A stretch of DNA of 35,363 nucleotides from a virus, in UHGV virus genome UHGV-0299546; one strand, given 5' to 3'. Under the pieces are notes generated by a model. That model was not told the origin of the DNA. It worked only from the letters and a program-made list of their open reading frames with translations, and searched no databases. The number at the start of each line of letters is the position of its first letter. Positions within the stretch are counted from its first letter, which is position 1. Positions 9,012 to 35,363 of the stretch are shown here, piece after piece. The position numbers and the translations under genes are program-made.

Positions 9012-10133
9012 ATGGGCGACTTAGGTGGTATTCAGTCAGATTTAGCCCAACTAGTTAGACTGGTAATAACTGAACAGTATGATGACGTTCGGTTATATGT
9101 CGCTCGCTTGGTGCGTAAATATCGGGAAACTATGCCTGCTCTATCCGAGCAGCTTGATCTTTATCTACGAAATAAACCGCAAAAGCCTGCACAAAGCCTG
9201 CGTAAGGTTACCGCACCAAAACAAGCGCTGCCTCAAACCATGCCTGTGGACGAGGAGTCAAGGCTTACCTTGCTTAAAGCACCAAATGAAAAGATTGTGA
9301 GCAAACCTCTACTGTCCAGTCAGATAGAAGACTCACTGGATCAAATTATTCTTGAGCGGAAGCACATCGATCGCCTCAAGACTCTCGGCTTACAACCAAC
9401 ACGCTCTGCCATTTTTGTTGGCCCTCCGGGTGTAGGTAAAACACTTACGGCAAGCTGGTTGGCTCAGAAATTAGGGGTTCCTTTTTACGTTCTTGATTTA
9501 ACGGCAGTAATGAGCAGCTATCTGGGCAAAAGCGGAAATAACCTTCGGGCAGCTCTAGATTTTGCGAAGAAAGGGCCGTGCGTTCTTCTGTTAGATGAAA
9601 TTGATTCAATCGCCAAAAAGAGAAGTGATGATTCTGATGTTGGAGAATTAAAAAGACTTGTTACCGTGATACTCCAGGAGGTTGACGAATGGCCGTCTTC
9701 TAGTTTGCTACTTGCTGCAACTAACTTCGCTGAGTTGATTGATCCAGCACTATGGAGACGTTTTGATTTAGTGCTCAATTTTGAGAAGCCAGATAGCGAA
9801 AGTATTAAAGAAGCAATTAAACGCTTTTCAGGTCCCGACTACGCGATTTTTGCACGTTGGATAGATCTACTGGCTATTATGTTCAAAAATGAATCTTTTA
9901 GTAATATTGAGCGTTCTATCAACAAATTCCGACGTTCGGTCGCTTTAGGTATTTCCTCAGATGAAGAGTTGATTGGGTCGTTCATTAAAGATGGTTTATC
10001 AGAATTAGACAGGAATGAACGTAAAGAAATTGCAGTTACTCTAAAAAGAAATTCTAAATTATCCCAGCATGCCATATCAGACTTAACCGGAGTCAGTAGG
10101 GATACAATTAGAAAATACAGTCAAAAAATGTAA
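9012..10133 (+). CDS. AAA+ ATPase with C-terminal HTH-like tail (IetA-like?); first gene of hotspot cargo
   Basis: Walker A GPPGVGKT (nt 9420-9443), Walker B VLLLDEID, sensor AATN; AT-rich relative to flanking phage genes; AAGAGG RBS. Confidence 0.85.
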   Translation: MGDLGGIQSDLAQLVRLVITEQYDDVRLYVARLVRKYRETMPALSEQLDLYLRNKPQKPAQSLRKVTAPKQALPQTMPVDEESRLTLLKAPNEKIVSKPLLSSQIEDSLDQIILERKHIDRLKTLGLQPTRSAIFVGPPGVGKTLTASWLAQKLGVPFYVLDLTAVMSSYLGKSGNNLRAALDFAKKGPCVLLLDEIDSIAKKRSDDSDVGELKRLVTVILQEVDEWPSSSLLLAATNFAELIDPALWRRFDLVLNFEKPDSESIKEAIKRFSGPDYAIFARWIDLLAIMFKNESFSNIERSINKFRRSVALGISSDEELIGSFIKDGLSELDRNERKEIAVTLKRNSKLSQHAISDLTGVSRDTIRKYSQKM

Positions 10134-10156
10134 TACAGCATAGATAAGGAGTATGT

Positions 10157-12382
10157 ATGGCGAAAACTAATTTTCTGATTGGACGCGGCGAATTATTAAC
10201 CAGCGATATTCCTGGTCCTAAAAGAGTGCCCGGAAAAGCTGAGGTTTATTCTCTTTACGAATCGAAACAACGTTTATTGCCGCAAATTGCATCTACTATA
10301 GAAAATTTTGATGATTTACCCAGTCAGGCATGTCCTTATGATTATGCTGTGGCTAAGTTGACGTTGAATCCGAGCTATATTGCACGCTCTTTTTTTCCTG
10401 CAAAAATGCTTAAGTCTACCGGGTTAACGTCTATTGGCAGCAGGACGGTAAAAATTACGCCTCAAAGCTGGAAGCGAAAAGTTACTGTGTCAGAAGTAAC
10501 TACGACACAAATGTTTGTTGCTGGTAAAAGAGAATCCTTCAAAGAGTTACCTCATTGGGTGTCAGGACTCAAAGAGTTTTCTGACGAAGCGATTGATTTT
10601 GCACGCATAGAACGGTTCGATGCCTATTTACCCGAAGAGCGTATTATTACCATTGGTGAGCAGGATTCTTCGTATTTTGAGGTTGGTGTTCATTTACTGC
10701 CAGATAATGAACAAGACTTGGTTCAGCAACAATTTGTTCAGTTTGCATCAAATTTGAACATCAAAGTACATACTTCATTAGCTTTTACCGCTGGTACATT
10801 ATGGTTCGTGCCAATCCAGGCCGATAGAATTACTATTAGTAAGCTTGCGAAATTTACATTTGTACGAGTCATAAGACCGGTTCCAAGATTGCGTGGGATT
10901 AGACCAATACAAAGGAACTACGGTCCTTTAGCTCAGTGTAAATTGCCTGCTGAGGGCCCCGTATCTTCAGAAATAAAAGTTGCGATTCTTGATGGTGGTT
11001 TACCATCAGAGCACGCTATATCGCCATGGTTAAAATCCTATAGAGTTTTGGACGATCATGCAGAGGATGATCCAGACGGTTTAGAGCATGGTTTAGCTGT
11101 GTCTTCAGCCTTTTTATTTGGACCAATAAGTAATAAATCGGAAGCGAAAAGACCATACTCTTATATTGATAACTTAAGAGTTTTGGACAACAAGACCTGC
11201 CAAGAAGATCCGCTGGAACTATATCGAACTTTGGGCTTTATTGAAGAGGTATTGTTGTCTCGCCAGTATCAGTTTATCAATCTAAGTTTAGGTCCAGACC
11301 TACCAATTGAAGATACGGAAGTTCATGCATGGACTTCCGTTATTGATGATTTGTTAAGTGATGGTGAAACATTAATGACTGTTGCTGTTGGCAACAATGG
11401 AGAAATGGATCGCAAGTCTGGTAATGCAAGAATTCAAGTACCAGCCGATTGCGTTAATGCTCTTGCTGTTGGTGCTTGTGATACAGTTAATGATACGGAA
11501 TGGAAACGAGCACCATATAGCGCCATTGGGCCAGGCAGAAGTCCTGGCGTGATGAAACCGGATTTAGTTGCGTTTGGTGGTGACACAGACGAGTACTTTC
11601 ATGTTTTAGGTAAAGGTAAGAAGCCTGTAATCATACCCCAGCTAGGAACAAGCTTTGCCTCTCCTTACGCCTTACGAGCAGCTGTTGGTGTTCGGGCAAT
11701 TTTAGGGAACGATTTGAGCCTACTAGCAATCAAAGCTTTGTTAATTCATGCGTCAAAACAGCTTGATCATCCTTGTACAGAAGTTGGCTGGGGAAAACTT
11801 CCTGAAGACTTGAACGACATTATAGTCAGCCCTGATGGTGTTGCCCGTATCGTCTACCAAGGTGAATTGAAACCAGGAAAATACTTACGCGCTCCTCTTC
11901 CAATACCTGAAGGTGGCTTGAAAGGTAGAATAAACTTAGCGGCAACTTTCTGTTATGCAACAACCACTGATCCACAAGACCCAGCTTCCTATACAAAAGC
12001 TGGTTTGGAAGTGACATTCCGGCCAAATGATTCAAAAATCAAAGACGGAAAACAAAATGCTGAAACCAAGGGATTCTTTGAACTGGCCAAATATTCAACT
12101 GAAAGTGAGCGACGTTCTGACATGGGCAAATGGGAGACCGTCTTACATAATTCGAAGAACATGCTAGGTTCAACTCTAAAAAATCCTGTATTTGACATTC
12201 ATTATAACGCTCGTGAGGCCGGTGCAAGCATAGCCAGCCATAAGGCAGAAAAAATCAAGTATGCTCTTATAATTACCATTAAGGCATCAAAGCACCAAGA
12301 CCTGTATAACGAAATTTTACGTACTTATAATCAGGTGCTCGTGCCAATTCAACCGCAAACATCAATTCCTATTCGTTCGTAA
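10157..12382 (+). CDS. Subtilisin-like serine protease, peptidase S8 family, with ~265-aa N-terminal domain of unknown function (IetS-like?)
   Basis: Catalytic triad motifs in D-H-S order: VAILD279GG (nt 10991-10993), EH311GLAVSS, GTS499FASP (nt 11651-11653); oxyanion VGNNGE; AAGGAG RBS; 23 bp after the ATPase stop. Confidence 0.88.
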   Translation: MAKTNFLIGRGELLTSDIPGPKRVPGKAEVYSLYESKQRLLPQIASTIENFDDLPSQACPYDYAVAKLTLNPSYIARSFFPAKMLKSTGLTSIGSRTVKITPQSWKRKVTVSEVTTTQMFVAGKRESFKELPHWVSGLKEFSDEAIDFARIERFDAYLPEERIITIGEQDSSYFEVGVHLLPDNEQDLVQQQFVQFASNLNIKVHTSLAFTAGTLWFVPIQADRITISKLAKFTFVRVIRPVPRLRGIRPIQRNYGPLAQCKLPAEGPVSSEIKVAILDGGLPSEHAISPWLKSYRVLDDHAEDDPDGLEHGLAVSSAFLFGPISNKSEAKRPYSYIDNLRVLDNKTCQEDPLELYRTLGFIEEVLLSRQYQFINLSLGPDLPIEDTEVHAWTSVIDDLLSDGETLMTVAVGNNGEMDRKSGNARIQVPADCVNALAVGACDTVNDTEWKRAPYSAIGPGRSPGVMKPDLVAFGGDTDEYFHVLGKGKKPVIIPQLGTSFASPYALRAAVGVRAILGNDLSLLAIKALLIHASKQLDHPCTEVGWGKLPEDLNDIIVSPDGVARIVYQGELKPGKYLRAPLPIPEGGLKGRINLAATFCYATTTDPQDPASYTKAGLEVTFRPNDSKIKDGKQNAETKGFFELAKYSTESERRSDMGKWETVLHNSKNMLGSTLKNPVFDIHYNAREAGASIASHKAEKIKYALIITIKASKHQDLYNEILRTYNQVLVPIQPQTSIPIRS

Positions 12383-24084: not shown

Positions 24085-26256
24085 ATGAGTACCACAACAC
24101 GAAAATTTAAAACCGTTATCACCGATACGGGTGCAAAAAAATTAGCTCAGGCAGCCGCGCCAGATGGTAAGCCTGTCCGCCTGACTCATATGGCCGTGGG
24201 CGACGGTGGCGGCACGTTGCCCACACCAGACAGTAAGCAGACCCGTCTGGTGCATGAGGTGTGGCGACACACTGTTAATCGCGTCATCCTGGACGCAACA
24301 CATCAGAACCGCATTATTGCGGAGCTGGTTATTCCTCCTGAAACGGGCGGATTCTGGATCCGGGAAATTGGTGTATTTGATGAGCACGGCGATTTAATCG
24401 CGGTGGGCAATACTGCCGAAAGTTACAAACCAACCGTTGCCGAAGGGTCCGGACGTGCACAAACATTTCGCACCATTCTGACCGTATCCAGCACTGCCAC
24501 CGTGGCGCTTACCGTGGATAACACCATGGTGATGGCCACAGTGGATTACGTGGATGACAAACTGAAAGAGCATGAACAGTCACGACGTCACCCGGATGCC
24601 TCGCTGACCGCAAAAGGCTTTGTTCAACTCAGTAGCGCCACTAACAGCGATTCTGAAACGCTGGCTGCAACGCCGAAAGCGGTTAAGGCCGCGTATGACC
24701 TGGCTAACGGAAAATATACCGCTCAGGACGCCACGACGGCACGAAAAGGGATAGTCCAGCTCAGCAGTGCAACCAACAGCACGTCTGAAACGCTGGCAGC
24801 GACACCAAAAGCTGTTAAGGCGGTAATGGATGAAACGAACAAGAAAGCGCCCTTAAACAGTCCTGCGCTGACCGGAACACCAACAACACCAACTGCGCCA
24901 AAAGGTACTAACAATACTCAGATCGCAAGCACGGCTTATGTTATGGCTGCGATCGCTGCCCTCGTGGACTCGTCGCCTGACGCACTGAATACGCTGAACG
25001 AGCTGGCTGCGGCGTTGGGCAACGACCCGAATTTTGCGACCACCATGACTAACGCGCTTGCGGGTAAGCAACCGAAAGATGCCACCCTGACGGCGCTGGC
25101 CGGGCTTGCTACTGCGGCAGACAGGTTTCCGTATTTTACGGGGAATGATGTTGCCAGCTTGGCAACCCTGACAAAAGTTGGGCGGGATATTCTTGCGAAA
25201 TCGACCGTTGCCGCCGTTATCGAATACCTCGGTTTACAGGAAACGGTAAACAAGGCTGGTAACGCCGTTCAGCGTTCCGGCGATAAAATGACCGGAGAAC
25301 TGAAAATTGGCACGATGAATGCGCTGCGAATTTTTAATGATGCCTTCGGTCTTATTTTCCGTCGTTCAGAAGAGTACCTTCATTTCATCCCTACGGCTGA
25401 AGGACAAGGCGAAAACGGTGATATCGGCCCATTAAGGCCATTCGCTATAAATCTGAGAACAGGTGCTATATCTGTCAGCCACGGGGCCAAAATTGATGGT
25501 GGGCTGGCGCTTGGTACAGATAACGCACTGGGCGGTAATTCCATTACTCTCGGAGATAACGACACTGGTATTAAACAGGGCGGCGACGGTGTCCTTTTAT
25601 TCTATTCAAATGGACAACTGGCATTTGGGCTTCAACCCGCATCTGCTGATTTTTATAAGCGGGTTGCATATATTCATCAGGGAATAATTCCTGATGGAAG
25701 TGGCGCATTTGCAGACCAGTTGAATAATGCCACCGCGCCTTTTGTTCAGACGCAGTTTGCCTGGAATCCCACTCCTGGTGGTCATTACGTGCCGATAGTT
25801 AAGGGCTTGTCCATTCGCAATGGACAGGGCTATCCCGGCGCGGTCAGCTTTGGGTATTTACTGACAGAACAGTATGGATTTCCGGTTCCATGTATTCATA
25901 TGCGTGGCGATGGCGGTAATGATGCTTTATGGCAGTTTAACCCGAACGATAAATCCTTTATTTCACCGGGTGCTCTTATTGCGGGTGGCGTCCATTATAA
26001 CACCGATGGAAATATATTTGGTGGGTGCTGGGGTTCAAACTTAAATGATTACCTGAATAGTTCTTTTATCAGAAATGTGCGTCTGGGAGGCAGACGTTCT
26101 GACGTATTATATCGCGGAGGACTTTGCGAACCAGGTAATGGTCATGTGACAACAGGATTGCAAATTATTGGTGAGGTTGATGGAGATGACTGGATGGTGT
26201 CACGACCACTACAAAAATACATTTCTGGTAACTGGTATAACGTTGAACAGGCATAG
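24085..26256 (+). CDS. H: Tail fibre protein gpH
   Basis: 723 aa; conserved P2 H-like N-terminus; internal phage tail-fibre repeats; variable C-terminal receptor-binding region. Confidence 0.9.
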   Translation: MSTTTRKFKTVITDTGAKKLAQAAAPDGKPVRLTHMAVGDGGGTLPTPDSKQTRLVHEVWRHTVNRVILDATHQNRIIAELVIPPETGGFWIREIGVFDEHGDLIAVGNTAESYKPTVAEGSGRAQTFRTILTVSSTATVALTVDNTMVMATVDYVDDKLKEHEQSRRHPDASLTAKGFVQLSSATNSDSETLAATPKAVKAAYDLANGKYTAQDATTARKGIVQLSSATNSTSETLAATPKAVKAVMDETNKKAPLNSPALTGTPTTPTAPKGTNNTQIASTAYVMAAIAALVDSSPDALNTLNELAAALGNDPNFATTMTNALAGKQPKDATLTALAGLATAADRFPYFTGNDVASLATLTKVGRDILAKSTVAAVIEYLGLQETVNKAGNAVQRSGDKMTGELKIGTMNALRIFNDAFGLIFRRSEEYLHFIPTAEGQGENGDIGPLRPFAINLRTGAISVSHGAKIDGGLALGTDNALGGNSITLGDNDTGIKQGGDGVLLFYSNGQLAFGLQPASADFYKRVAYIHQGIIPDGSGAFADQLNNATAPFVQTQFAWNPTPGGHYVPIVKGLSIRNGQGYPGAVSFGYLLTEQYGFPVPCIHMRGDGGNDALWQFNPNDKSFISPGALIAGGVHYNTDGNIFGGCWGSNLNDYLNSSFIRNVRLGGRRSDVLYRGGLCEPGNGHVTTGLQIIGEVDGDDWMVSRPLQKYISGNWYNVEQA
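24613..24825 (+). repeat. Intragenic tandem repeat in H, two ~44-aa units
   Basis: GFVQLSSATNSDSETLAATPKAVKA and GIVQLSSATNSTSETLAATPKAVKA, 132 bp apart. Confidence 0.6.
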
Positions 26257-26271
26257 CCATCAGGAGAATAT

Positions 26272-26799
26272 ATGCAACATCTGAAAAATATTACCGCCGG
26301 AAACCCCAAAACCATTGAGCAGTATCAGCTTACGAAAAAAGCTGGCGTTATCTGGCTATATACAGAAGACGGTAAAAACTGGTATGACGAATTAAAAAAC
26401 TTTCAGGATGATACTTTAAAAATAGCTTATGACCAGAAGGGGATTATTCGTTGTATTGAGAAAGACGTATCAATGCTTAACCCTGACGGGTTAAGTGTTG
26501 TTGAGTTACCGAATATAACAGCCAACCGTCGCGCCGATATCTCGGGAAACTGGAAGTTTCTGGATGGTAAAGTAGTAAAGCGGGAATATACAAAACAGGA
26601 ACTGCAACAGCAGGCAGAGTTACAAAAAGCCGCTTTGCTTTCCGAAGCGGAGTCTGTGATTCAACCGCTGGAACGTGCTGTCAGACTGAATATGGCAACT
26701 GATGAGGAACGCACACGACTGGAATCATGGGAACGCTACAGCGTTATGGTCAGCCGTGTGGATACTGCAAAGCCTGAATGGCCACAGAAACCAAAATAA
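26272..26799 (+). CDS. G: Tail fibre assembly chaperone gpG
   Basis: 175 aa following H; AGGAG RBS. Confidence 0.85.
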
Positions 26800-26808
26800 C
26801 AACAAATT

Positions 26809-26830
26809 AAGGCCCGTACGGGCCTTTTCT
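26809..26830 (+). terminator. Intrinsic terminator after the tail fibre operon
   Basis: AAGGCCCG-TA-CGGGCCTT followed by TTCTT. Confidence 0.6.
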
Positions 26831-26862
26831 TATTCTGGTGGTTCCGGGAATGTTACAGGAAG

Positions 26863-27018
26863 AACCAAATAGCAAGGCTGATCAAAAACGGTCATGACAG
26901 GAAACAACTGGCGATCATTTACGACATCGGCATATCGACGATTTATCGTTATCACCCTGTAGGCGATATACAGGCTGAAGAAACAACCAGGCAGACTCAG
27001 GAAAATGAAAACCGCTAA
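26863..27018 (+). pseudogene. C-terminal fragment of a serine DNA invertase (Hin/Gin/Pin family), no start codon
   Basis: Frame reads ...NQIARLIKNGHDRKQLAIIYDIGISTIYRYHPVGD...*, resembling the HTH domain of Hin; no ATG/GTG/TTG start (the frame opens at the G stop codon) and no catalytic domain. Confidence 0.5.
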
Positions 27019-27035
27019 TCTGACCATTAGCGGTT
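27005..27035. terminator. Bidirectional hairpin between the invertase remnant and the end of U
   Basis: AAACCGCTAAT-CTGACC-ATTAGCGGTTT with T-rich flanks on both strands. Confidence 0.5.
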
Positions 27036-27044
27036 TTGCGTTAA

Positions 27045-27539
27045 TCAAAACAGCCCTTTAACGGAGCTGGCCGCGCTGTTAAGGGATGATGTGACCTTAT
27101 CTTTGAAGCCGGACAGCATATCACTGAACGATGAGGATTGCAGGCGCTCCCGCAAATCCTCATCACAGCGTTCAAGGGTCAGTGAAAATTCTATCTTTTT
27201 CGCCTTACCGTAGCGATCAAACTCGGAGCGGGTCGTATTCGTTTCAGTCAGTACATACATGCCGTAAATCTGCCCGACACCATCAATCAGAGGCCAGGGG
27301 CGTCCTGTATATGCCTGCGTGGTCAGCAACGAAAGCGACACTTCGCCACCTGTAATTTCAGGATAAAGCACACCAGAAAGAACGATGCGATCATCACCTG
27401 CACCGATATACTGCCAGCTTGCTGAACGGTTAACGCGTTCATTTTTCACATGCCGCCAGCTTTTGTTTTGCTGTAACTGCTGATGCGGCAGCGTGCGCAG
27501 CTCAAAAACAAACATGCCGTAGATCATCATCATGACCAT
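27045..27539 (-). CDS. U: Tail protein gpU
   Basis: 164 aa, P2 U-like by position and length; start among a run of Met codons is uncertain. Confidence 0.85.
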   Translation of the reverse strand: MVMMMIYGMFVFELRTLPHQQLQQNKSWRHVKNERVNRSASWQYIGAGDDRIVLSGVLYPEITGGEVSLSLLTTQAYTGRPWPLIDGVGQIYGMYVLTETNTTRSEFDRYGKAKKIEFSLTLERCDEDLRERLQSSSFSDMLSGFKDKVTSSLNSAASSVKGLF

Positions 27540-27545
27540 GACTCC

Positions 27546-30362
27546 TCAATCTTTATCGTAAAAACTGCCACGCCCGGCACGGGCGCGCCGTTCCATTTCT
27601 GCCCTGACCATTTCACCGACCAGTTTCGCCAGTTCGCGGGGATTCTGTGTAACAACGTTATGCAGATGAACATGAATTTCACCGCCAAATCCGGAGGCAA
27701 CAGGCTCCCGGTTACGGGAAGTTGCAGGAACTGATGCCACTGGAGATCGTATGGCCTCTGCCACCGGGCGGGAGCTGGCCGCAACAACAGGGACCAGCGC
27801 CGGAGGCAGCGGAGCCGGAACCACAGGTGTGATATTAATTGCGGGGGCAGGCTTACTGACCTGCGCAATCTTCCGCTCCTGCCACTCCCCACGAACGGCA
27901 AGTGCGCGGGGCAGGTTCTTAAAGACAATATCGCCGGGGCCAATACGTTTTTTCGTCTCATCAACCAGCTTACCTGTGTTATCAGCAATTTTGCTGAGTC
28001 TGCGTAGCGTACCGGTATTGCTGTCTGTGAGCGGTTTATTGTCTTTGGTTTTATCACCTCCGGTGCCATTGCCATTTTCCGCAGACTTCGGCGGATTGAT
28101 TTTCGCAATGTCTCCCTGAAACAGAGCAACCTTGTCCTGAAGAATGGCCGCACGCTGTGCGTCTTCGATTTTCTTTCTCGCCCTTTCCGCTTCATCCGGA
28201 AGCACACCGAGTTTTTCAAGTATCCACGCCAGCGTATCCAGCAACATTTTTGCGGGCGTCAGAACAAGCTGTAACGCACCGCCAAGAACGTTACCGAATA
28301 TCTCGCCAGCACTGGTACATTTATCCAGCGTTTCCTTGCTGGACTCCATCGGTGACAGCAGCGATTTAAACCAGTTAAACACCTGACTTATCCCGCTTCC
28401 GATTGCGTCAAAAACAGGACCAAACCGTTCAAAGGTTTCGCGTAACGGGGCCAGCCGCTCCATAATCCCGCTGAACACCCCGGCATAAAACGCCTTGATG
28501 GGTTCCCAGTATTTCCAGATGAGAACTGCCGCAGCCACAAACGCAGCAGCAATCAATCCGACCGGGCTGAACAGCGCCCCGATAGCGCCCCCCAGTAACG
28601 AAACGGAACCCGTCACCATTCCCCATAGTGCTGGCAGGAGCCTGACAGCATTCATTGATCCGGTCAGGAGAGAAAAACCAAGACGCAACGTGGCCAGCTT
28701 CCCGTGAAGCACTCCAATAACCAGCGACAACGAGCCAACCGTTGCAGTCATTGCCAGCAGCGCACCGCCTGCTATCAGTAACTGGCGCGTCAGTACCGGA
28801 TGGGCCTGTGCCAGCGCCGTCACCTTTGAGACCACCCGCGTGAGCCACTGCGTGACAGAACGCAGCGGACCATCAATCAGATCTGCAATGCGGATACGCA
28901 GCCCTTCCCATGCACTGCCGAGTGATTTCAGGTCGCCATCAAGGTTATTGGCCATAACCTTTGCCGTGCGTTCAGCCTCACCGCGTGCGCCCTCAAGTTC
29001 TTTTCTCAGTTTGGGCAGGGAGCCGTCACCCGCCGCATCAACGAGAGCCATAAACGACGTGAAAGCCTCTTCCCCGGCAATGTCCTTAAAGAACGATACC
29101 CGGTCAACTTCCCCGTATTTACGGGTGGCTTTATAAAGGTCGGCCAGCACATCTTCCATCGGGCGCATTTTGCCGTTCGCATCAGAGACGGACACACCCA
29201 GCTCTTTCAGCGCTTCTGCTGCCGCCTTTGGCGGTGATGCCAGACGAGCCAGGCTGGCACGCATTGCCGTCCCGGCATCACTCCCTCTGATACCCATATT
29301 CGCCAGCACGCCCGCCATCGCTGCGGCCTGCTCCAGCGATATTCCCAGCTTACCCGCCACCGGACCTGCATATTTCATGGTTTCGCCCAGTGCGCGAAGG
29401 TCAGTGTTAGTACGGGTAAACACTGCTGTAAGCGTGTCACCGACCCGGTCCATCTGGTCAGCGGAGAGGCCGAACTGCGTCAGGATATTTGAGCCAATAT
29501 CTGCCGTCTCGCCAAGGTCCATACCGCCAGCCGTTGCCATGCTCAGCACGCCGGGAAGCGCAGCCTGAATGGCCTGCGGTGTGAAGCCAGCCATTGCCAG
29601 AAATGCCTGCCCACTGGCGGCATCGCCTGCGGTGAACTGCGTTTCAGAGCCAAGTTTTAACGCCTGCTCACGCAGCGCCTTAAACTGCGGGCTGTTTTTG
29701 TCGATTCGCGTCAGTGCCTGAACGCGGGACATCTCTTTCCCGAACCCGATCGCAGGCTGCAAAAAACGCCCGGCAGCATAGCTGCCAGCCGCTGTCGCAC
29801 CAATTGCCAGCGCACCACCTGTTTTCAGTTTTCCCGCGGTTTCCTGCGCGCGCGAATACCGCTCACGCGCACGTGTTACACGCGCAAGCGCCTGCCGTTC
29901 GCGTTCAAGCTGGTTGTTGTACTGTTCGGTGCGTCTGATGGCCTGCTGGATGGTGTTATCGCTGCCTGTCAGGGAAATGCCGTGGCGTTTCAGCTCTCCG
30001 CCAAGCTCCCGCATTTTCTGAATTTCCCGTGTACGCGATTCATTCAGGCGTTCAAGCCGGGTGCTTAACTGCTGCATCAGCTTTTGTTGTTTTTCGCTGA
30101 GCACTGTACCCGTGCGTTGTAACTGATTAAGGGCGTTAAGCTGGCGTCGTGCTTTCACGATGCCCGCATCCGCTTTACTGACAGCGTCACGGGCGCGCTC
30201 AAATGAACGCGCCTGACGCTCGAGATTTTTGATCGCCCCCTGCGTTCGCTGGATGGAGTCACCAAACTGCCCCATCAGGCGGCGGGCGTTTTCGGCAGGC
30301 CGGGTCAGCCTGTCAACGGCGCTGAAAGCGACCCGGATATCAAGAGTCTTCATTGTCTGCAT
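27546..30362 (-). CDS. T: Tail tape measure protein gpT
   Basis: ~940 aa, Ala/Gly-rich with coiled-coil N-terminus and hydrophobic central region; start set at ATG 30362 (GTG 30389 or ATG 30353 possible); overlaps the end of E'. Confidence 0.9.
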   Translation of the reverse strand: MQTMKTLDIRVAFSAVDRLTRPAENARRLMGQFGDSIQRTQGAIKNLERQARSFERARDAVSKADAGIVKARRQLNALNQLQRTGTVLSEKQQKLMQQLSTRLERLNESRTREIQKMRELGGELKRHGISLTGSDNTIQQAIRRTEQYNNQLERERQALARVTRARERYSRAQETAGKLKTGGALAIGATAAGSYAAGRFLQPAIGFGKEMSRVQALTRIDKNSPQFKALREQALKLGSETQFTAGDAASGQAFLAMAGFTPQAIQAALPGVLSMATAGGMDLGETADIGSNILTQFGLSADQMDRVGDTLTAVFTRTNTDLRALGETMKYAGPVAGKLGISLEQAAAMAGVLANMGIRGSDAGTAMRASLARLASPPKAAAEALKELGVSVSDANGKMRPMEDVLADLYKATRKYGEVDRVSFFKDIAGEEAFTSFMALVDAAGDGSLPKLRKELEGARGEAERTAKVMANNLDGDLKSLGSAWEGLRIRIADLIDGPLRSVTQWLTRVVSKVTALAQAHPVLTRQLLIAGGALLAMTATVGSLSLVIGVLHGKLATLRLGFSLLTGSMNAVRLLPALWGMVTGSVSLLGGAIGALFSPVGLIAAAFVAAAVLIWKYWEPIKAFYAGVFSGIMERLAPLRETFERFGPVFDAIGSGISQVFNWFKSLLSPMESSKETLDKCTSAGEIFGNVLGGALQLVLTPAKMLLDTLAWILEKLGVLPDEAERARKKIEDAQRAAILQDKVALFQGDIAKINPPKSAENGNGTGGDKTKDNKPLTDSNTGTLRRLSKIADNTGKLVDETKKRIGPGDIVFKNLPRALAVRGEWQERKIAQVSKPAPAINITPVVPAPLPPALVPVVAASSRPVAEAIRSPVASVPATSRNREPVASGFGGEIHVHLHNVVTQNPRELAKLVGEMVRAEMERRARAGRGSFYDKD

Positions 30363-30869
30363 TCCCGCTGCGAAGTGCCGCCCGCTCACGCCAGCTAACC
30401 ACTTCGCCGGGCGTCATCATGAAGATTTCGGCGGGCGACCAGTTAAAAATAACGGCAATATCTGCCACAAAGTCTTCTATGTGCTCAAAGCACACAACCG
30501 TGATCAGGCTTCCGTCGCCTGTTCGTTCTTCCCGCCAGAGTCCGCACCGCTCAAAAAATTTACGGCAACCACACATAACTGAATAAAGTCACAGGATGCC
30601 ATTTTTTTGATCGTCACTTCATCCAGTCGCGGTGATGTCACGCGTGACAGCAGCGTAAACATGGATTCCGCTTTCAGATTCAGCACATCAGACAGCGACA
30701 AATCTCGCAGAGATCCAGCCTGCTCAATAGCTCCGGTGATCTCCACATACGTGATTTTTTCGCCGCTTCGCTCAATTGGTTGGGTAAGTTTTACGCCACG
30801 CTCACTGGTTTCTTTCACAGTGTCAGCAACGACCGTGTTTTCGTTATCGATGTTTTTCGTCTCTTTCAT
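30340..30869 (-). CDS. gpE+E' fusion made by programmed -1 ribosomal frameshift (about 175 aa)
   Basis: The E frame contains the heptamer T_TTT_TTG (minus strand, 30558 to 30552); the -1 frame is open from there to the stop at 30340; same arrangement as lambda G/GT and P2 E/E'. Confidence 0.6.
30504..30869 (-). CDS. E: Tail assembly chaperone gpE
   Basis: VTSPRLDE...FLSG resembles P2 E. Confidence 0.85.
   Translation of the reverse strand: MKETKNIDNENTVVADTVKETSERGVKLTQPIERSGEKITYVEITGAIEQAGSLRDLSLSDVLNLKAESMFTLLSRVTSPRLDEVTIKKMASCDFIQLCVVAVNFLSGADSGGKNEQATEA
30552..30558 (-). other. Slippery heptamer T_TTT_TTG for the E to E' -1 frameshift
   Basis: Hand-translated: zero frame ...V N F L S G..., -1 frame ...F F E R C G L W... 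Confidence 0.6.
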
Positions 30870-30923
30870 CAGGAAACTCCTTTCAGTCAGAGGCGACGCA
30901 CTGCGCCGCCTGCATATTACTTA

Positions 30924-31436
30924 TCAGCCAAGCCCAAGCGCGGAACGGATGCGATCGGGCACAATGTCCTTGCCGTCCTTCCGGTAAATGAAGTTCAGCA
31001 GGTCAATCTCCCACAACGGGCGATCGTTAACACTCAGCTTGTAGTAGGTGTTTTTAATGGCGTAAGTGTGTGATGTGGCTTCGCCCTGTTTGGCTTCCCC
31101 CATATCAATTTCCGTCACACGTCCGCGCATTTCGACTTCATACAGGTCGCTTTCTGCATCGGTGTAGTATTCACCCGCAAAACGCAGCAGCGTGCCGTCA
31201 ATCGTGCCGCCATACTTAAGGAACAGCTCACGAACTGCGCCCCCCATGACAAAGCTCGCATCAAGCGCGGAGTCGTCCAGACCGAGATCAATACTTACCG
31301 CACCCATCATGCCGCCCCCCCGGTAGCTGTCGGTTTTGCGCGTCAGTTTGGGCAGAGTGACGGACGTCACCTTACCCACTTCGTTTTCACCATCCACAAA
31401 CAGCGTAAAAAAGCGAAGATGTTTTGGCACAGCCAT
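30924..31436 (-). CDS. FII: Tail tube protein gpFII
   Basis: 170 aa, P2 FII-like by length and position. Confidence 0.92.
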   Translation of the reverse strand: MAVPKHLRFFTLFVDGENEVGKVTSVTLPKLTRKTDSYRGGGMMGAVSIDLGLDDSALDASFVMGGAVRELFLKYGGTIDGTLLRFAGEYYTDAESDLYEVEMRGRVTEIDMGEAKQGEATSHTYAIKNTYYKLSVNDRPLWEIDLLNFIYRKDGKDIVPDRIRSALGLG

Positions 31437-32620
31437 CAGGCACCTCCCAGCACCGCAAATGCGGGTTCAAAGTATTCATCAGTAAACGTCTGGTAAAGCT
31501 CCATGTCTTCCAGTGGCGGAACGGGCGTATATTTGTAGCGAATACGCACACGCCCCTGACGTAAATCCGTGGTGCTGTTATCCACCACGTCATACCAGCA
31601 CTCCGCACCAATCAGTTTCCCGGCAGTAACCAGTGAATCCAGTTTTGCCCTGATGGCACTGATAACATCCTTCACGTTCGCAGGCGTCAGTGGACTGTCG
31701 ATGGTTTCAAACTGCGCTTCCGCAATTGAATCAGCCAGCACCTGTGCGGTTCGGGTATACACCTCAAAGATGTAGGCGTTCGTTTCCGGTGTGCGGTTGC
31801 CCCAGAAGCGGAACCCGTTGCGACGAATAATGGTCGTGATTTCTTTGTTGTTAAGGCTGTTGGCATCACTGTCTTCGGCCTGCAACGACCAGAACACATG
31901 CCTGGACATCCCCAGCACATTTTTAACCGGAACGTTGGACAGCGATTTGTGCCAGCCCTGCTCATGGTCAATGTACGCACGAAGGCCGCACGCATAGGCA
32001 GGCGCGGGGAACGTTTCGTTTTTGCCACTTTTCGGGTTGTAGGCGATGAAGTCCGGCCATAAGAGCATCACCTCACGTTCGTTGAATTTCTGGCGGTAGG
32101 TAATCGCCTCAGCCATCGTGTTACAGCCGTGACATGAGGCATACACAAACGCGCGCAGTTTACCCGCAATCACGCACAGGGATTTTGTTACCGCCTCCGT
32201 GTCCAGCTCCGGCGCGGCCAGAATACGCGGACGGTATCCGATGCTTTCATCCTGCTCTGCAACAAGCAGCGCATACATCCCCGTATAGCTGCCGTCAGAT
32301 TCAGAACCACCGATAACCAGTTGATCCTGCGTTTTTCCGTCTTCTTCTTTGTGTTCAGCCACGCGAACGACGATCACCTTTGTGCTCACCTGGTCTGCGA
32401 TGGCCTTAAGCGCACGATAAAGCGTCCCCGTTGTCCCGCATTTTCCCAGCACGTCATTGACGCGGGTCAGCAGTGTGGGCTTGTTCAGCGGGAACAGCTT
32501 CGCGTCCGCATCATCCGCCGTTGCCACGATACCGATAACGCTGGAATCAACATCGTTAATCGCTGTTACCAGGTCGGTATTTTCCGTAACACGGGCACCA
32601 TGAAAACGAGTTTCACTCAT
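31436..32620 (-). CDS. FI: Tail sheath protein gpFI
   Basis: 394 aa; resembles P2 FI in several blocks (FPLNKP, KLRAF, WPDF, QGWHK.LSNV, RRNGFRFWGNRT, YTRTAQV, YTPVPPLE). Confidence 0.95.
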   Translation of the reverse strand: MSETRFHGARVTENTDLVTAINDVDSSVIGIVATADDADAKLFPLNKPTLLTRVNDVLGKCGTTGTLYRALKAIADQVSTKVIVVRVAEHKEEDGKTQDQLVIGGSESDGSYTGMYALLVAEQDESIGYRPRILAAPELDTEAVTKSLCVIAGKLRAFVYASCHGCNTMAEAITYRQKFNEREVMLLWPDFIAYNPKSGKNETFPAPAYACGLRAYIDHEQGWHKSLSNVPVKNVLGMSRHVFWSLQAEDSDANSLNNKEITTIIRRNGFRFWGNRTPETNAYIFEVYTRTAQVLADSIAEAQFETIDSPLTPANVKDVISAIRAKLDSLVTAGKLIGAECWYDVVDNSTTDLRQGRVRIRYKYTPVPPLEDMELYQTFTDEYFEPAFAVLGGA

Positions 32621-33887: not shown

Positions 33888-33929
33888 GCAACTTAGAATA
33901 GCGGCAGCACCACGTTAAGGGAGGTCGCT

Positions 33930-34190
33930 ATGTTCCGTTGTCCGCTTTGTGGCGCATCTGCCCGTATCCGCACCAGTCGTCCGGAAAATGATTCAAACAC
34001 CGTGCGGCAAAAGTATTACCAGTGTAACAATCTGGAATGCGGCGTATGCTTCTCAACACTGGAAGCTTTCCATAAATTCACATCAAAACACGCCTCCGGC
34101 GTTCACTCATCAGAAGGTATCCCGTGGCATGATCTGCCAGCTTCACACAGGGGAAACAATCAGATGAGTTTGCCTTTATCTCAGAATTAA
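33930..34190 (+). CDS. ogr: Late transcription activator, Ogr/Delta zinc-finger family
   Basis: MFRCPLCGASARIRTSR...YYQCNNLECGVCF resembles P2 Ogr, including the four Cys ligands. Confidence 0.88.
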   Translation: MFRCPLCGASARIRTSRPENDSNTVRQKYYQCNNLECGVCFSTLEAFHKFTSKHASGVHSSEGIPWHDLPASHRGNNQMSLPLSQN

Positions 34191-34199
34191 CAGGCAGAA

Positions 34200-34228
34200 T
34201 TGCCGGAGTAACAAAAAAGCGATAGATT
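34200..34228 (+). promoter_or_regulatory. Candidate sigma70 promoter for the mok/hok-like locus
   Basis: TTGCCG (34200-34205), 17-bp spacer, TAGATT (34223-34228). Confidence 0.3.
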
Positions 34229-34250
34229 ACGCGCGGGTGCCTTTCGGCTG

Positions 34251-34463
34251 ATGGTCGGAGGGAATACCCGAAGGCCGGATGTGGAAAGGCCCCGGAAAAC
34301 ATATCTGTTTAACCGAGGCCCTAACCGCATTACCTTGACAAGTGAAAGGTTAGCGCCTCTCCGGAAAAGGAGCAAGTGCTATGTCGCAAAAATCGCTTAC
34401 GGCCATCACGTTCTGCGTGACGGCAATCCTCATCATCTGGATGCTGCACGGTTCGCTGTGTGA
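34251..34463 (+). CDS. mok-like overlapping reading frame (70 aa)
   Basis: ORF starting upstream of, and overlapping, the hok-like gene in another frame, as in hok/mok/sok loci. Confidence 0.35.
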   Translation: MVGGNTRRPDVERPRKTYLFNRGPNRITLTSERLAPLRKRSKCYVAKIAYGHHVLRDGNPHHLDAARFAV

Positions 34464-34521
34464 AATACGGATGAGTTTCTGGGGAGCGGAGTTTGCGGCG
34501 TTCTTACAGTGTAAGCAGTAA
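34381..34521 (+). CDS. hok: Hok/Gef-family type I toxin (46 aa)
   Basis: Hand-translated MSQKSLTAITFCVTAILIIWMLHGSLCEIRMSFWGAEFAAFLQCKQ: transmembrane helix, then SLCEI and AAFLxCK motifs as in HokA; AAGGAG RBS 7 nt upstream. Confidence 0.7.
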   Translation: MSQKSLTAITFCVTAILIIWMLHGSLCEIRMSFWGAEFAAFLQCKQ

Positions 34522-34610
34522 GGAAACCGCGACGGGGGAGCAATCCCCCGTCAATCGGTTGCCAGGGTAAGGTCGATAAGGTACCCTATCTCACAGACAC
34601 GAACAACAAA

Positions 34611-34632
34611 CCCGCAGCGTAAAGACTGCGGG
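34611..34632 (+). terminator. Intrinsic terminator after the hok-like gene
   Basis: CCCGCAG-CGTAAAGA-CTGCGGG followed by a T-rich tract. Confidence 0.55.
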
Positions 34633-34633
34633 T

Positions 34634-34669
<36 letters not shown>

Positions 34670-34674
34670 AACAA

Positions 34675-34698
34675 AATAGTTAATTAAAATTAACTATT
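34675..34698. repeat. Perfect 11-bp inverted repeat AATAGTTAATT-aa-AATTAACTATT
   Basis: Overlaps the stop codon of the minus-strand ORF; AT-rich palindrome. Confidence 0.7.
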
Positions 34699-34971
34699 AT
34701 GCTCTTGTCTCCATTGCCTAACCATTTCATCAGTAACATCACTCGCATAACAAATCACGTTATATCCTCCGCTACGGCTGTACGCACTACGCCCACCGCA
34801 TCGACTTCCATTTCTTGCATGATTATAAGGGCATGCACAATTTCCGGGATAAGATTCAATAGATTCCCTGATTATTTCTTGTTTAATTTGACTGTCAGAT
34901 TTATTAGTCTTTGCGTACCCCAACACAGACACAAAACAAAGACACATCCCAATAAAAATTTTAACTTTCAT
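34690..34971 (-). CDS. Small signal-peptide protein (93 aa), AT-rich moron-like gene
   Basis: ATG 34971 with AGGGAG RBS; N-terminal MKVKIFIGMCLCFVSVLGYA signal-like segment; Cys/Gly-rich mature part. Confidence 0.55.
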   Translation of the reverse strand: MKVKIFIGMCLCFVSVLGYAKTNKSDSQIKQEIIRESIESYPGNCACPYNHARNGSRCGGRSAYSRSGGYNVICYASDVTDEMVRQWRQEHNS

Positions 34972-35243
34972 ATAAAGCTCCCTGTTAAAAACCAGCAATA
35001 AAATTACTACCAAGTAGTAATGGGAATTTCTGGAACAAAGATCACAAAACAAAACAGCTAATATAAAAGCTATATAATTTTTAATTCCTATAGAAAAAGC
35101 CCAACAACCACGCGACGACACCAAGCAGCCATCACCACATAAACAAAGCCCGCATTAAACAGTGCGGGCTTTAAATCGCTATGGCAATAAGTGGACAACA
35201 CAAAAAATAATCCATTATTTTTCATTGTGTTATGCGGATTTTC

Positions 35244-35273
35244 GCGCCACCCGAAGGTGGCGTGCTTTTATTA
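35244..35273 (+). terminator. Hairpin GCGCCACC-CGAA-GGTGGCG followed by a T-rich tract; contains the right copy of the 15-bp repeat (candidate attR core)
   Basis: Stem-loop 35244-35261, then TGCTTTTATTATT. Confidence 0.4.
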
Positions 35274-35363
35274 TTACTTATCCCTGTCTAACCAGTCGCC
35301 GCTTTCAATTAGCTTTAATCCATCGACGGGTCGTTGATAAACGTACATCCATGCACTCCCGTA

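Follow-up and report, generated by a model that had tools for sequence, protein, structure and literature searches.

Probable remains of a tail fibre switch downstream of the fibre genes in a P88-type Escherichia prophage

The DNA analysed here (35,363 nucleotides, one strand; referred to as the window) constitutes a complete P2-like prophage of the P88 type (Xuanwuvirus) from Escherichia. Downstream of its tail fibre genes, it carries the 3' end of a DNA invertase gene (26866 to 27018, plus strand), consisting of codons 150 to 199 and the stop codon and encoding a helix-turn-helix domain with no start codon. We consider it very likely (probability of about 0.9) that this fragment is a dead relic of a fibre-switch invertase that was lost by ordinary gene decay, and the prophage would then have a fixed rather than a switchable receptor-binding fibre. 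The basis for this reading is the identity of each piece, the joint between them, the absence of a catalytic domain and of a second crossover site, and the intact architecture of relatives.

Membership of the P88-like group is indicated by nucleotide similarity to phage P88 (Xuanwuvirus; 96.6% identity across 80% of positions 1 to 25000) and by synteny, including a minus-strand FI-FII-E-T-U block before D. Read 5' to 3', the gene order runs from int through A, two accessory genes, Q/P, and capsid, lysis and baseplate genes to H and G; past the relic region, U, T, E, FII and FI lie on the minus strand (27045 to 32620), and D follows on the plus strand. A 15-bp direct repeat at both prophage ends (183 to 197 and 35245 to 35259) provides a candidate att core, CGCCACCCGAAGGTG. 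The right end (33900 to 35363) carries ogr and a Hok/Gef-family gene beside host ytfP, and the ytfP-side flank was matched in all 5,426 complete E. coli genomes. At 9012 to 12382, replication gene A and portal gene Q flank the other accessory hotspot of P2-like phages, which holds the anti-phage defence pair IetA/IetS (an AAA ATPase, E = 1e-77, and an S8 protease, E = 7e-52, respectively).

The frame containing the relic is open from 26800, directly after the G stop codon, to a TAA at 27016 to 27018, and there is no in-frame ATG, GTG or TTG within it. Its C-terminal part, reading QIARLIKNGHDRKQLAIIYDIGISTIYRYHP…, matched Pfam HTH_7 in a profile search (E = 3e-9; 37.3 bits, with a gathering cut-off of 23.8 bits), the solved Hin DNA-binding domain 1hcr (E = 1.7e-10) and Gin (E of about 1e-5, aligned to residues 148 to 185 of 193), and the fragment is the C-terminal HTH_7 DNA-binding domain of a Hin/Gin (Din) invertase. 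A tblastn search of the whole window with an intact 199-aa relative invertase gave a sole match, to aa 150 to 199 at 26866 to 27015, with 100% identity. The catalytic resolvase domain with its serine nucleophile is absent from the whole window by tblastn, and Pfam yields HTH_7 only. Invertase nt 1 to 447, i.e., codons 1 to 149, are gone, and the relic is without the GRRPK arm that precedes helix 1 in the intact invertase. This arm (Hin residues 139-140) is required for DNA binding, and the recombinational enhancer (Fis sites) of Hin, Gin and Cin sits in the 5' part of the invertase gene. Neither a promoter-like site nor a significant match to an Rfam family was found in 26600 to 27200; with no start codon and no promoter-like site, the fragment is not a complete translatable invertase gene. 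A sequence-only reading of this DNA had described a start-less segment of the Hin/Gin type with no catalytic domain and had proposed a protein-level search against serine recombinases. That search, with its Hin/Gin helix-turn-helix match and full identity to aa 150 to 199, confirmed the description, although homology begins at 26866 instead of 26863.

The beginning of the open frame (26800 to 26865) is not invertase but the G terminator and then, in antisense, the final 12 codons of G', a former convergent fibre assembly gene. The hairpin between G and G' (26809 to 26826; 7-bp stem with 5 GC pairs) is terminator-like on both strands. The G' remnant (26830 to 26865, minus strand) comprises the stop codon and the last 11 sense codons (...VLPVTFPEPPE*); the intact G' genes of the Mu-like Yersinia phage vB_YpM_3 and of many E. 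coli prophages end in exactly this sequence. Over the 71 nt on the left, identity is 100% to intact G/G' pairs of many E. coli prophages, where they are annotated 'tail fiber assembly protein (x2)'. The joint falls between 26865 and 26866 (left parent ...GAAGAAC/CGAGG; right parent ...CATGAG/CAAATAG), with microhomology of at most 1 nt (C). To its right lie the 3' invertase end and gene U of P88-like phages, with 95% identity to P88 (26866 to 28000), 99 to 100% identity to E. coli prophages and 100% identity of the invertase end to intact recombinase genes. A perfect 12-bp inverted repeat at 27008 to 27037 forms a terminator common to the invertase and the convergent tail operon and is kept in P88 and other relatives. 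The hotspot had been proposed to hold only an invertase fragment; its 245 nt do lack a cargo gene, yet they also contain the G' stump and the terminators. In annotation, an invertase pseudogene fragment with a G' stump would describe the stretch better than an ORF.

An antisense ORF of 72 aa (27048 to 26830, minus strand) crosses the relic and ends in frame within the G' stump. As a query, this junction-spanning ORF gave two matches only, and a related antisense ORF is annotated 'putative lipoprotein' in another locus (P0001). It is probably spurious, because the terminator hairpin lies inside it.

Both fibre genes upstream are intact. H (24085 to 26256, plus strand; 723 aa; Pfam Phage_tail_fib and Phage_fiber_2) has a constant part up to a crossover site and then a variable receptor-binding part, Hv (25243 to 26256), and 23001 to 25271 matches P88 H. 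G (26272 to 26799, plus strand; 175 aa) is a tail fibre assembly gene (Pfam Caudo_TAP, E = 8.8e-35). The 26-bp invertase crossover site inside H (ixL; 25217 to 25242, minus strand) reads TTCCTGTAAACC GA GGTATTCGATAA and is an orphan: a scan of the window allowing up to three mismatches returned this match alone, with 0 expected. Intact relatives have two inverted 26-bp sites, reading TTCCTGTAAACC GA GGT…GATAA, and truncated relatives that share the window's fibre type have one. The corresponding site of vB_YpM_3 is TTCCTGTAAACCGAGGTTTTGGATAA, and the site bears a close resemblance to Mu gix. Within the relic, an ix-like element, TGATCAAAAACGGTCATGACAGGAA (26880 to 26904), has both outer half-site blocks yet is 1 bp short, and it is weaker in the P88 allele.

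At the orphan crossover site, similarity to P88 stops and similarity to a foreign cassette starts. The retained half of the invertible cassette (25210 to 26866, plus strand) consists of the variable H end, G, the terminator and the 3' end of G'; in place of two convergent fibre-end/chaperone sets, the window has Hv-G and a 36-nt G' stump only. This half is 98.9% identical to vB_YpM_3 (locus L002, 3010 to 4667) and about 97% identical to lambdoid E. coli prophages (L010 and L011), and the Hv-G cassette is 97 to 99% identical to cassettes across L002, L010, L011, L112 and L114. The lambdoid prophages with the same cassette sit near trpA/ompW, and the adjacent invertase is truncated there to its N terminus only.

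Relatives retain the complete system at the same spot. In P88, E. coli 14EC047 and ZY22049, the order is H and G on the plus strand, G' and H'v on the minus strand, a crossover site, the invertase on the plus strand, and U-T-E-FII-FI on the minus strand; a full invertase and invertible segment are also found there in 503458, 520873, P884B11, phiSM and many E. coli prophages. The P88 DNA invertase (YP_009113086.1) and the E. coli alleles WP_000905055.1 and WP_001165544.1 occupy this site, between the fibre genes and minus-strand U. The window relic corresponds to aa 150 to 199 of these P88-type alleles and is 100% identical to the ZY22049 allele. On the IMG/VR contigs with this allele, 95 of 99 were checked, and the gene is intact across nt 448. 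The comparison with relatives carrying an intact invertase and an invertible segment, as the sequence-only reading had proposed, located both at this spot.

The same comparison did not bear out the suggestion that the relic marks the left breakpoint of an inverted tail block. The minus-strand tail block is a genus trait and has the ancestral orientation. Gene U (27045 to 27539, minus strand; Pfam Phage_P2_GpU) is the last gene of the FI-FII-E-T-U block, and this block adjoins the invertase position in every P88-like relative examined, whether the invertase is intact, truncated or replaced. Because relatives keep the same FI-to-U block there, its edge is no breakpoint private to this genome, and an intact invertase abuts U likewise. 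No crossover-like sites or inverted repeats were found at either end of the tail block in the window.

We propose that an ancestor carried a host-range switch like the Mu G segment, in which the constant part of H was followed by a crossover site, two convergent sets (Hv-G and G'-H'v), a second crossover site and the invertase. The coordinates would put the loss at about 1.9 kb, beginning 36 nt into the 3' end of G' and reaching invertase nt 447; it would have included H'v, the right crossover site (ixR) and the invertase promoter region, and it probably came about by illegitimate deletion or recombination in a single event. What survives is Hv, G and ixL, and what is lost is most of G', H'v, ixR and invertase nt 1 to 447. 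The fragment had been thought to be the relic of a deleted invertible fibre module; the relic stands, yet the module was not deleted whole. The remaining 26800 to 27044 would be noncoding debris, made up of the G terminator, 12 antisense G' codons, 50 invertase codons and the shared terminator. Having a single crossover site and lacking a recombinase, the segment would not be expected to invert, even with an invertase supplied in trans, and the phage would make one fixed fibre from H (723 aa) and G.

The relic itself is probably silent because it has no start codon, lies behind an upstream terminator, lacks the GRRPK arm and has a sister lineage with relaxed substitution. In that sister lineage (L124), the relic has 4 nonsynonymous and 3 synonymous substitutions, compared to 2 and 7 between intact alleles, a pattern that fits decay. 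In the window lineage itself, decay is not demonstrable because the relic is identical to a living allele. Two observations run against this reading: the relic is in frame with G, as it is in E. coli 4238, and the invertase cut point recurs in unrelated contexts, a pattern not predicted for a random deletion.

The E. coli 4238 prophage provides a close parallel and shows that the relic is of an already-known kind: NCBI PGAP annotates its equivalent as a pseudogene (M5T38_RS06110, 'helix-turn-helix domain-containing protein; incomplete; missing N-terminus'). The prophage type, the 153-nt relic and its right endpoint are the same as in the window. The left endpoint inside G' leaves 35 nt, compared to 36 nt in the window, and the Hv end and G belong to a different cassette type (64 to 89% identity to the window). 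Compared to the intact ZY22049 prophage, to which both flanks of the E. coli 4238 relic are 100% identical, E. coli 4238 lacks 1,973 nt, and its ix site is the hybrid that a single inversion would produce.

The exact window joint was found in none of 5,426 complete E. coli genomes, among which strain 4238 carries the variant only, and species-representative genomes scanned for the joint and the allele gave no matches. It is present in one IMG/VR contig (99% identity over 14.9 kb) and one JGI metagenome contig, and the locked prophage with the exact joint occurs in at least eight distinct draft-genome or metagenome contigs. In a P2-like context, the exact window G protein is always accompanied by the truncation; elsewhere, lambdoid prophages and Mu-like phages carry it. 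Among the relatives searched, none was an intact P88-like parent with this Hv-G cassette, and for this reason the cassette may have been imported rather than its neighbour deleted in place. Under such an import, a P88-like prophage whose invertase was already truncated would have acquired the Hv-G half-cassette from a lambdoid or Mu-like phage, with the left crossover at or near ixL and the nonhomologous G' tail of the donor trimmed at the pre-existing heterology boundary. The 97 to 99% identity of 25210 to 26866 to lambdoid and Mu-like phages, in a combination never seen intact in a P88-like context, is consistent with this proposal. E. coli 4238 is also consistent with it, sharing the right endpoint and differing by 1 nt at the left, with a left flank that is homologous but of the other type and pure up to the joint. 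However, an exchange of this kind needs homeologous pairing at 64 to 89% identity, several intact prophages are at least as close to the right flank of the window as E. coli 4238 is, and the same cut point in two other lineages (L119 and L124), with unrelated left flanks, is left unexplained. We regard import as less likely but plausible.

Recurrence of the cut point is not confined to the window and E. coli 4238. Truncated relics in several other P88-like prophages begin at nearly the same invertase nucleotide (nt 445 to 449; window position 26866 is nt 448), and their left flanks are unrelated (flank alignment z of about 0). The loci whose relic endpoints were compared were L003, L119 to L127, L128, L158, L164, L007 and L008. 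The L119 type has an 865-aa fibre with no chaperone and the joint …GAACATT/CAAATAGC, and the L124 type has an 805-aa pectate-lyase-type fibre and the joint …GCC(GAG)/CAAATAGC. The joint reads …GGCAGGC/CAAATAGC in E. coli 4238, after a G' stump of the other cassette type, and …GAAGAAC/CAAATAGC after the G' stump of the window. The L119-type joint occurs in 8 of the 5,426 complete genomes, its relic shares no more than about 90% identity with any intact allele, and a search for the native context of its fibre module in phages gave no match. Further endpoints lie at about nt 392, 455 to 462, 460 to 466, 530 and 580.

Several candidate mechanisms for the joint were considered and rejected. Recombination at an invertase quasi-site is disfavoured since, by hand comparison, neither side resembles a 26-bp crossover site centred on the break, and the only ix-like element of the relic, 25 bp in length, is found 14 nt away from it. 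Microhomology-mediated deletion would have had at most 1 nt available in the window and none in E. coli 4238. On the plus strand, positions 26836 to 26843 form a Chi-like octamer, TCTGGTGG (7 of 8), where the E. coli 4238 cassette type has TCTGGTTG; for Chi-limited RecBCD resection, it is correctly oriented but 23 nt to the left of the joint, and there is none on the right side. The att core is unrelated to the joint, which dismisses an integrase secondary site, and the DNA fold of invertase nt 360 to 520 (z = −1.1) gives no hairpin at the cut point. Across the relics compared, no crossover-like site, microhomology, Chi, att core or hairpin explains the cluster.

A hotspot, gene conversion limited by a boundary, weak selection or sampling may account for the cluster; the search that yielded the relic lineages favoured ORFs with the helix-turn-helix only. 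Nucleotides 445 to 449 coincide with the boundary between the catalytic and DNA-binding domains. That this boundary is a recurrent joint between unrelated receptor-binding modules and the retained helix-turn-helix end, through either a hotspot or selection for a product of that domain alone, is a speculative proposal that we consider improbable. Such selection is conceivable since the L119 type has its own Shine-Dalgarno sequence and GTG start; if it occurred, the product might occupy crossover sites and so hold the fibre in its locked state when invertases act in trans. The clustering of truncation points alone might merit a population-scale look.

A related proposal is that the window fragment is itself a functional small gene, in which the invertase DNA-binding domain alone is expressed, either by initiation at a non-canonical codon or by translation through the stop codon of G, and might, for instance, occupy crossover sites and prevent the invertases of other prophages from causing inversion. 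The position of the relic in frame with G, 66 nt past its stop codon (63 nt in E. coli 4238), would allow read-through, some annotators call a 70-aa ORF here, and the cut point is the start of helix 1 of the domain. Moreover, in the L119 lineage, GGAGG-N10-GTG precedes the same 50 codons to give a 53-aa ORF. Against this, the window frame has no ATG, GTG or TTG, ends at a TAA stop and lies behind a terminator hairpin, and the GRRPK arm is missing. The L128 and L158 lineages are cut within helix 1, a Leu-to-Gln change falls in helix 2 in P0011, and nonsynonymous substitutions in the L124 core are not outnumbered by synonymous ones (4 and 3). A functional product is accordingly very improbable. 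The alternative that the helix-turn-helix similarity is fortuitous and the region ordinary intergenic DNA, which the sequence-only reading had named as its own refutation, is dismissed by a complete match to intact invertases (100% across 50 residues and 153 nt) and by a Pfam score above the gathering threshold.

The interpretation of the fragment as a dead invertase relic places the locus among known fibre-switching systems. Its map position, downstream of H-G, is that of the Z/fun hotspot of P2, although no cargo gene is present at this spot in the window. At the Z/fun hotspot, fibre genes are reportedly swapped, and a DNA invertase with inverted adjacent genes is often found (preprint 10.1101/2024.10.15.618418); invertible fibre loci of P2-like prophages phase-vary in EPEC (PMC4272514). 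The downstream terminator and the ixL site in H are the same in the window and the P88-type invertase systems, and the window differs from them in lacking codons 1 to 149 and the start codon of the invertase, its promoter region, ixR, G' (apart from the stump) and H'v. In contrast to the systems of Mu, P1, e14 and Salmonella Hin, the locus in the window is apparently dead, with one site and no enzyme. Its intact relatives resemble Mu Gin/G, P1 Cin/C, e14 Pin/P and Salmonella Hin (Din family serine invertases) in logic, sharing with Din systems 26-bp inverted sites with a GA core, a split fibre gene, an adjacent invertase and two convergent fibre/chaperone sets. The window would thus provide another case of invertible fibre cassettes that are common to P2-like, Mu-like and lambdoid phages and are lost by deletion.
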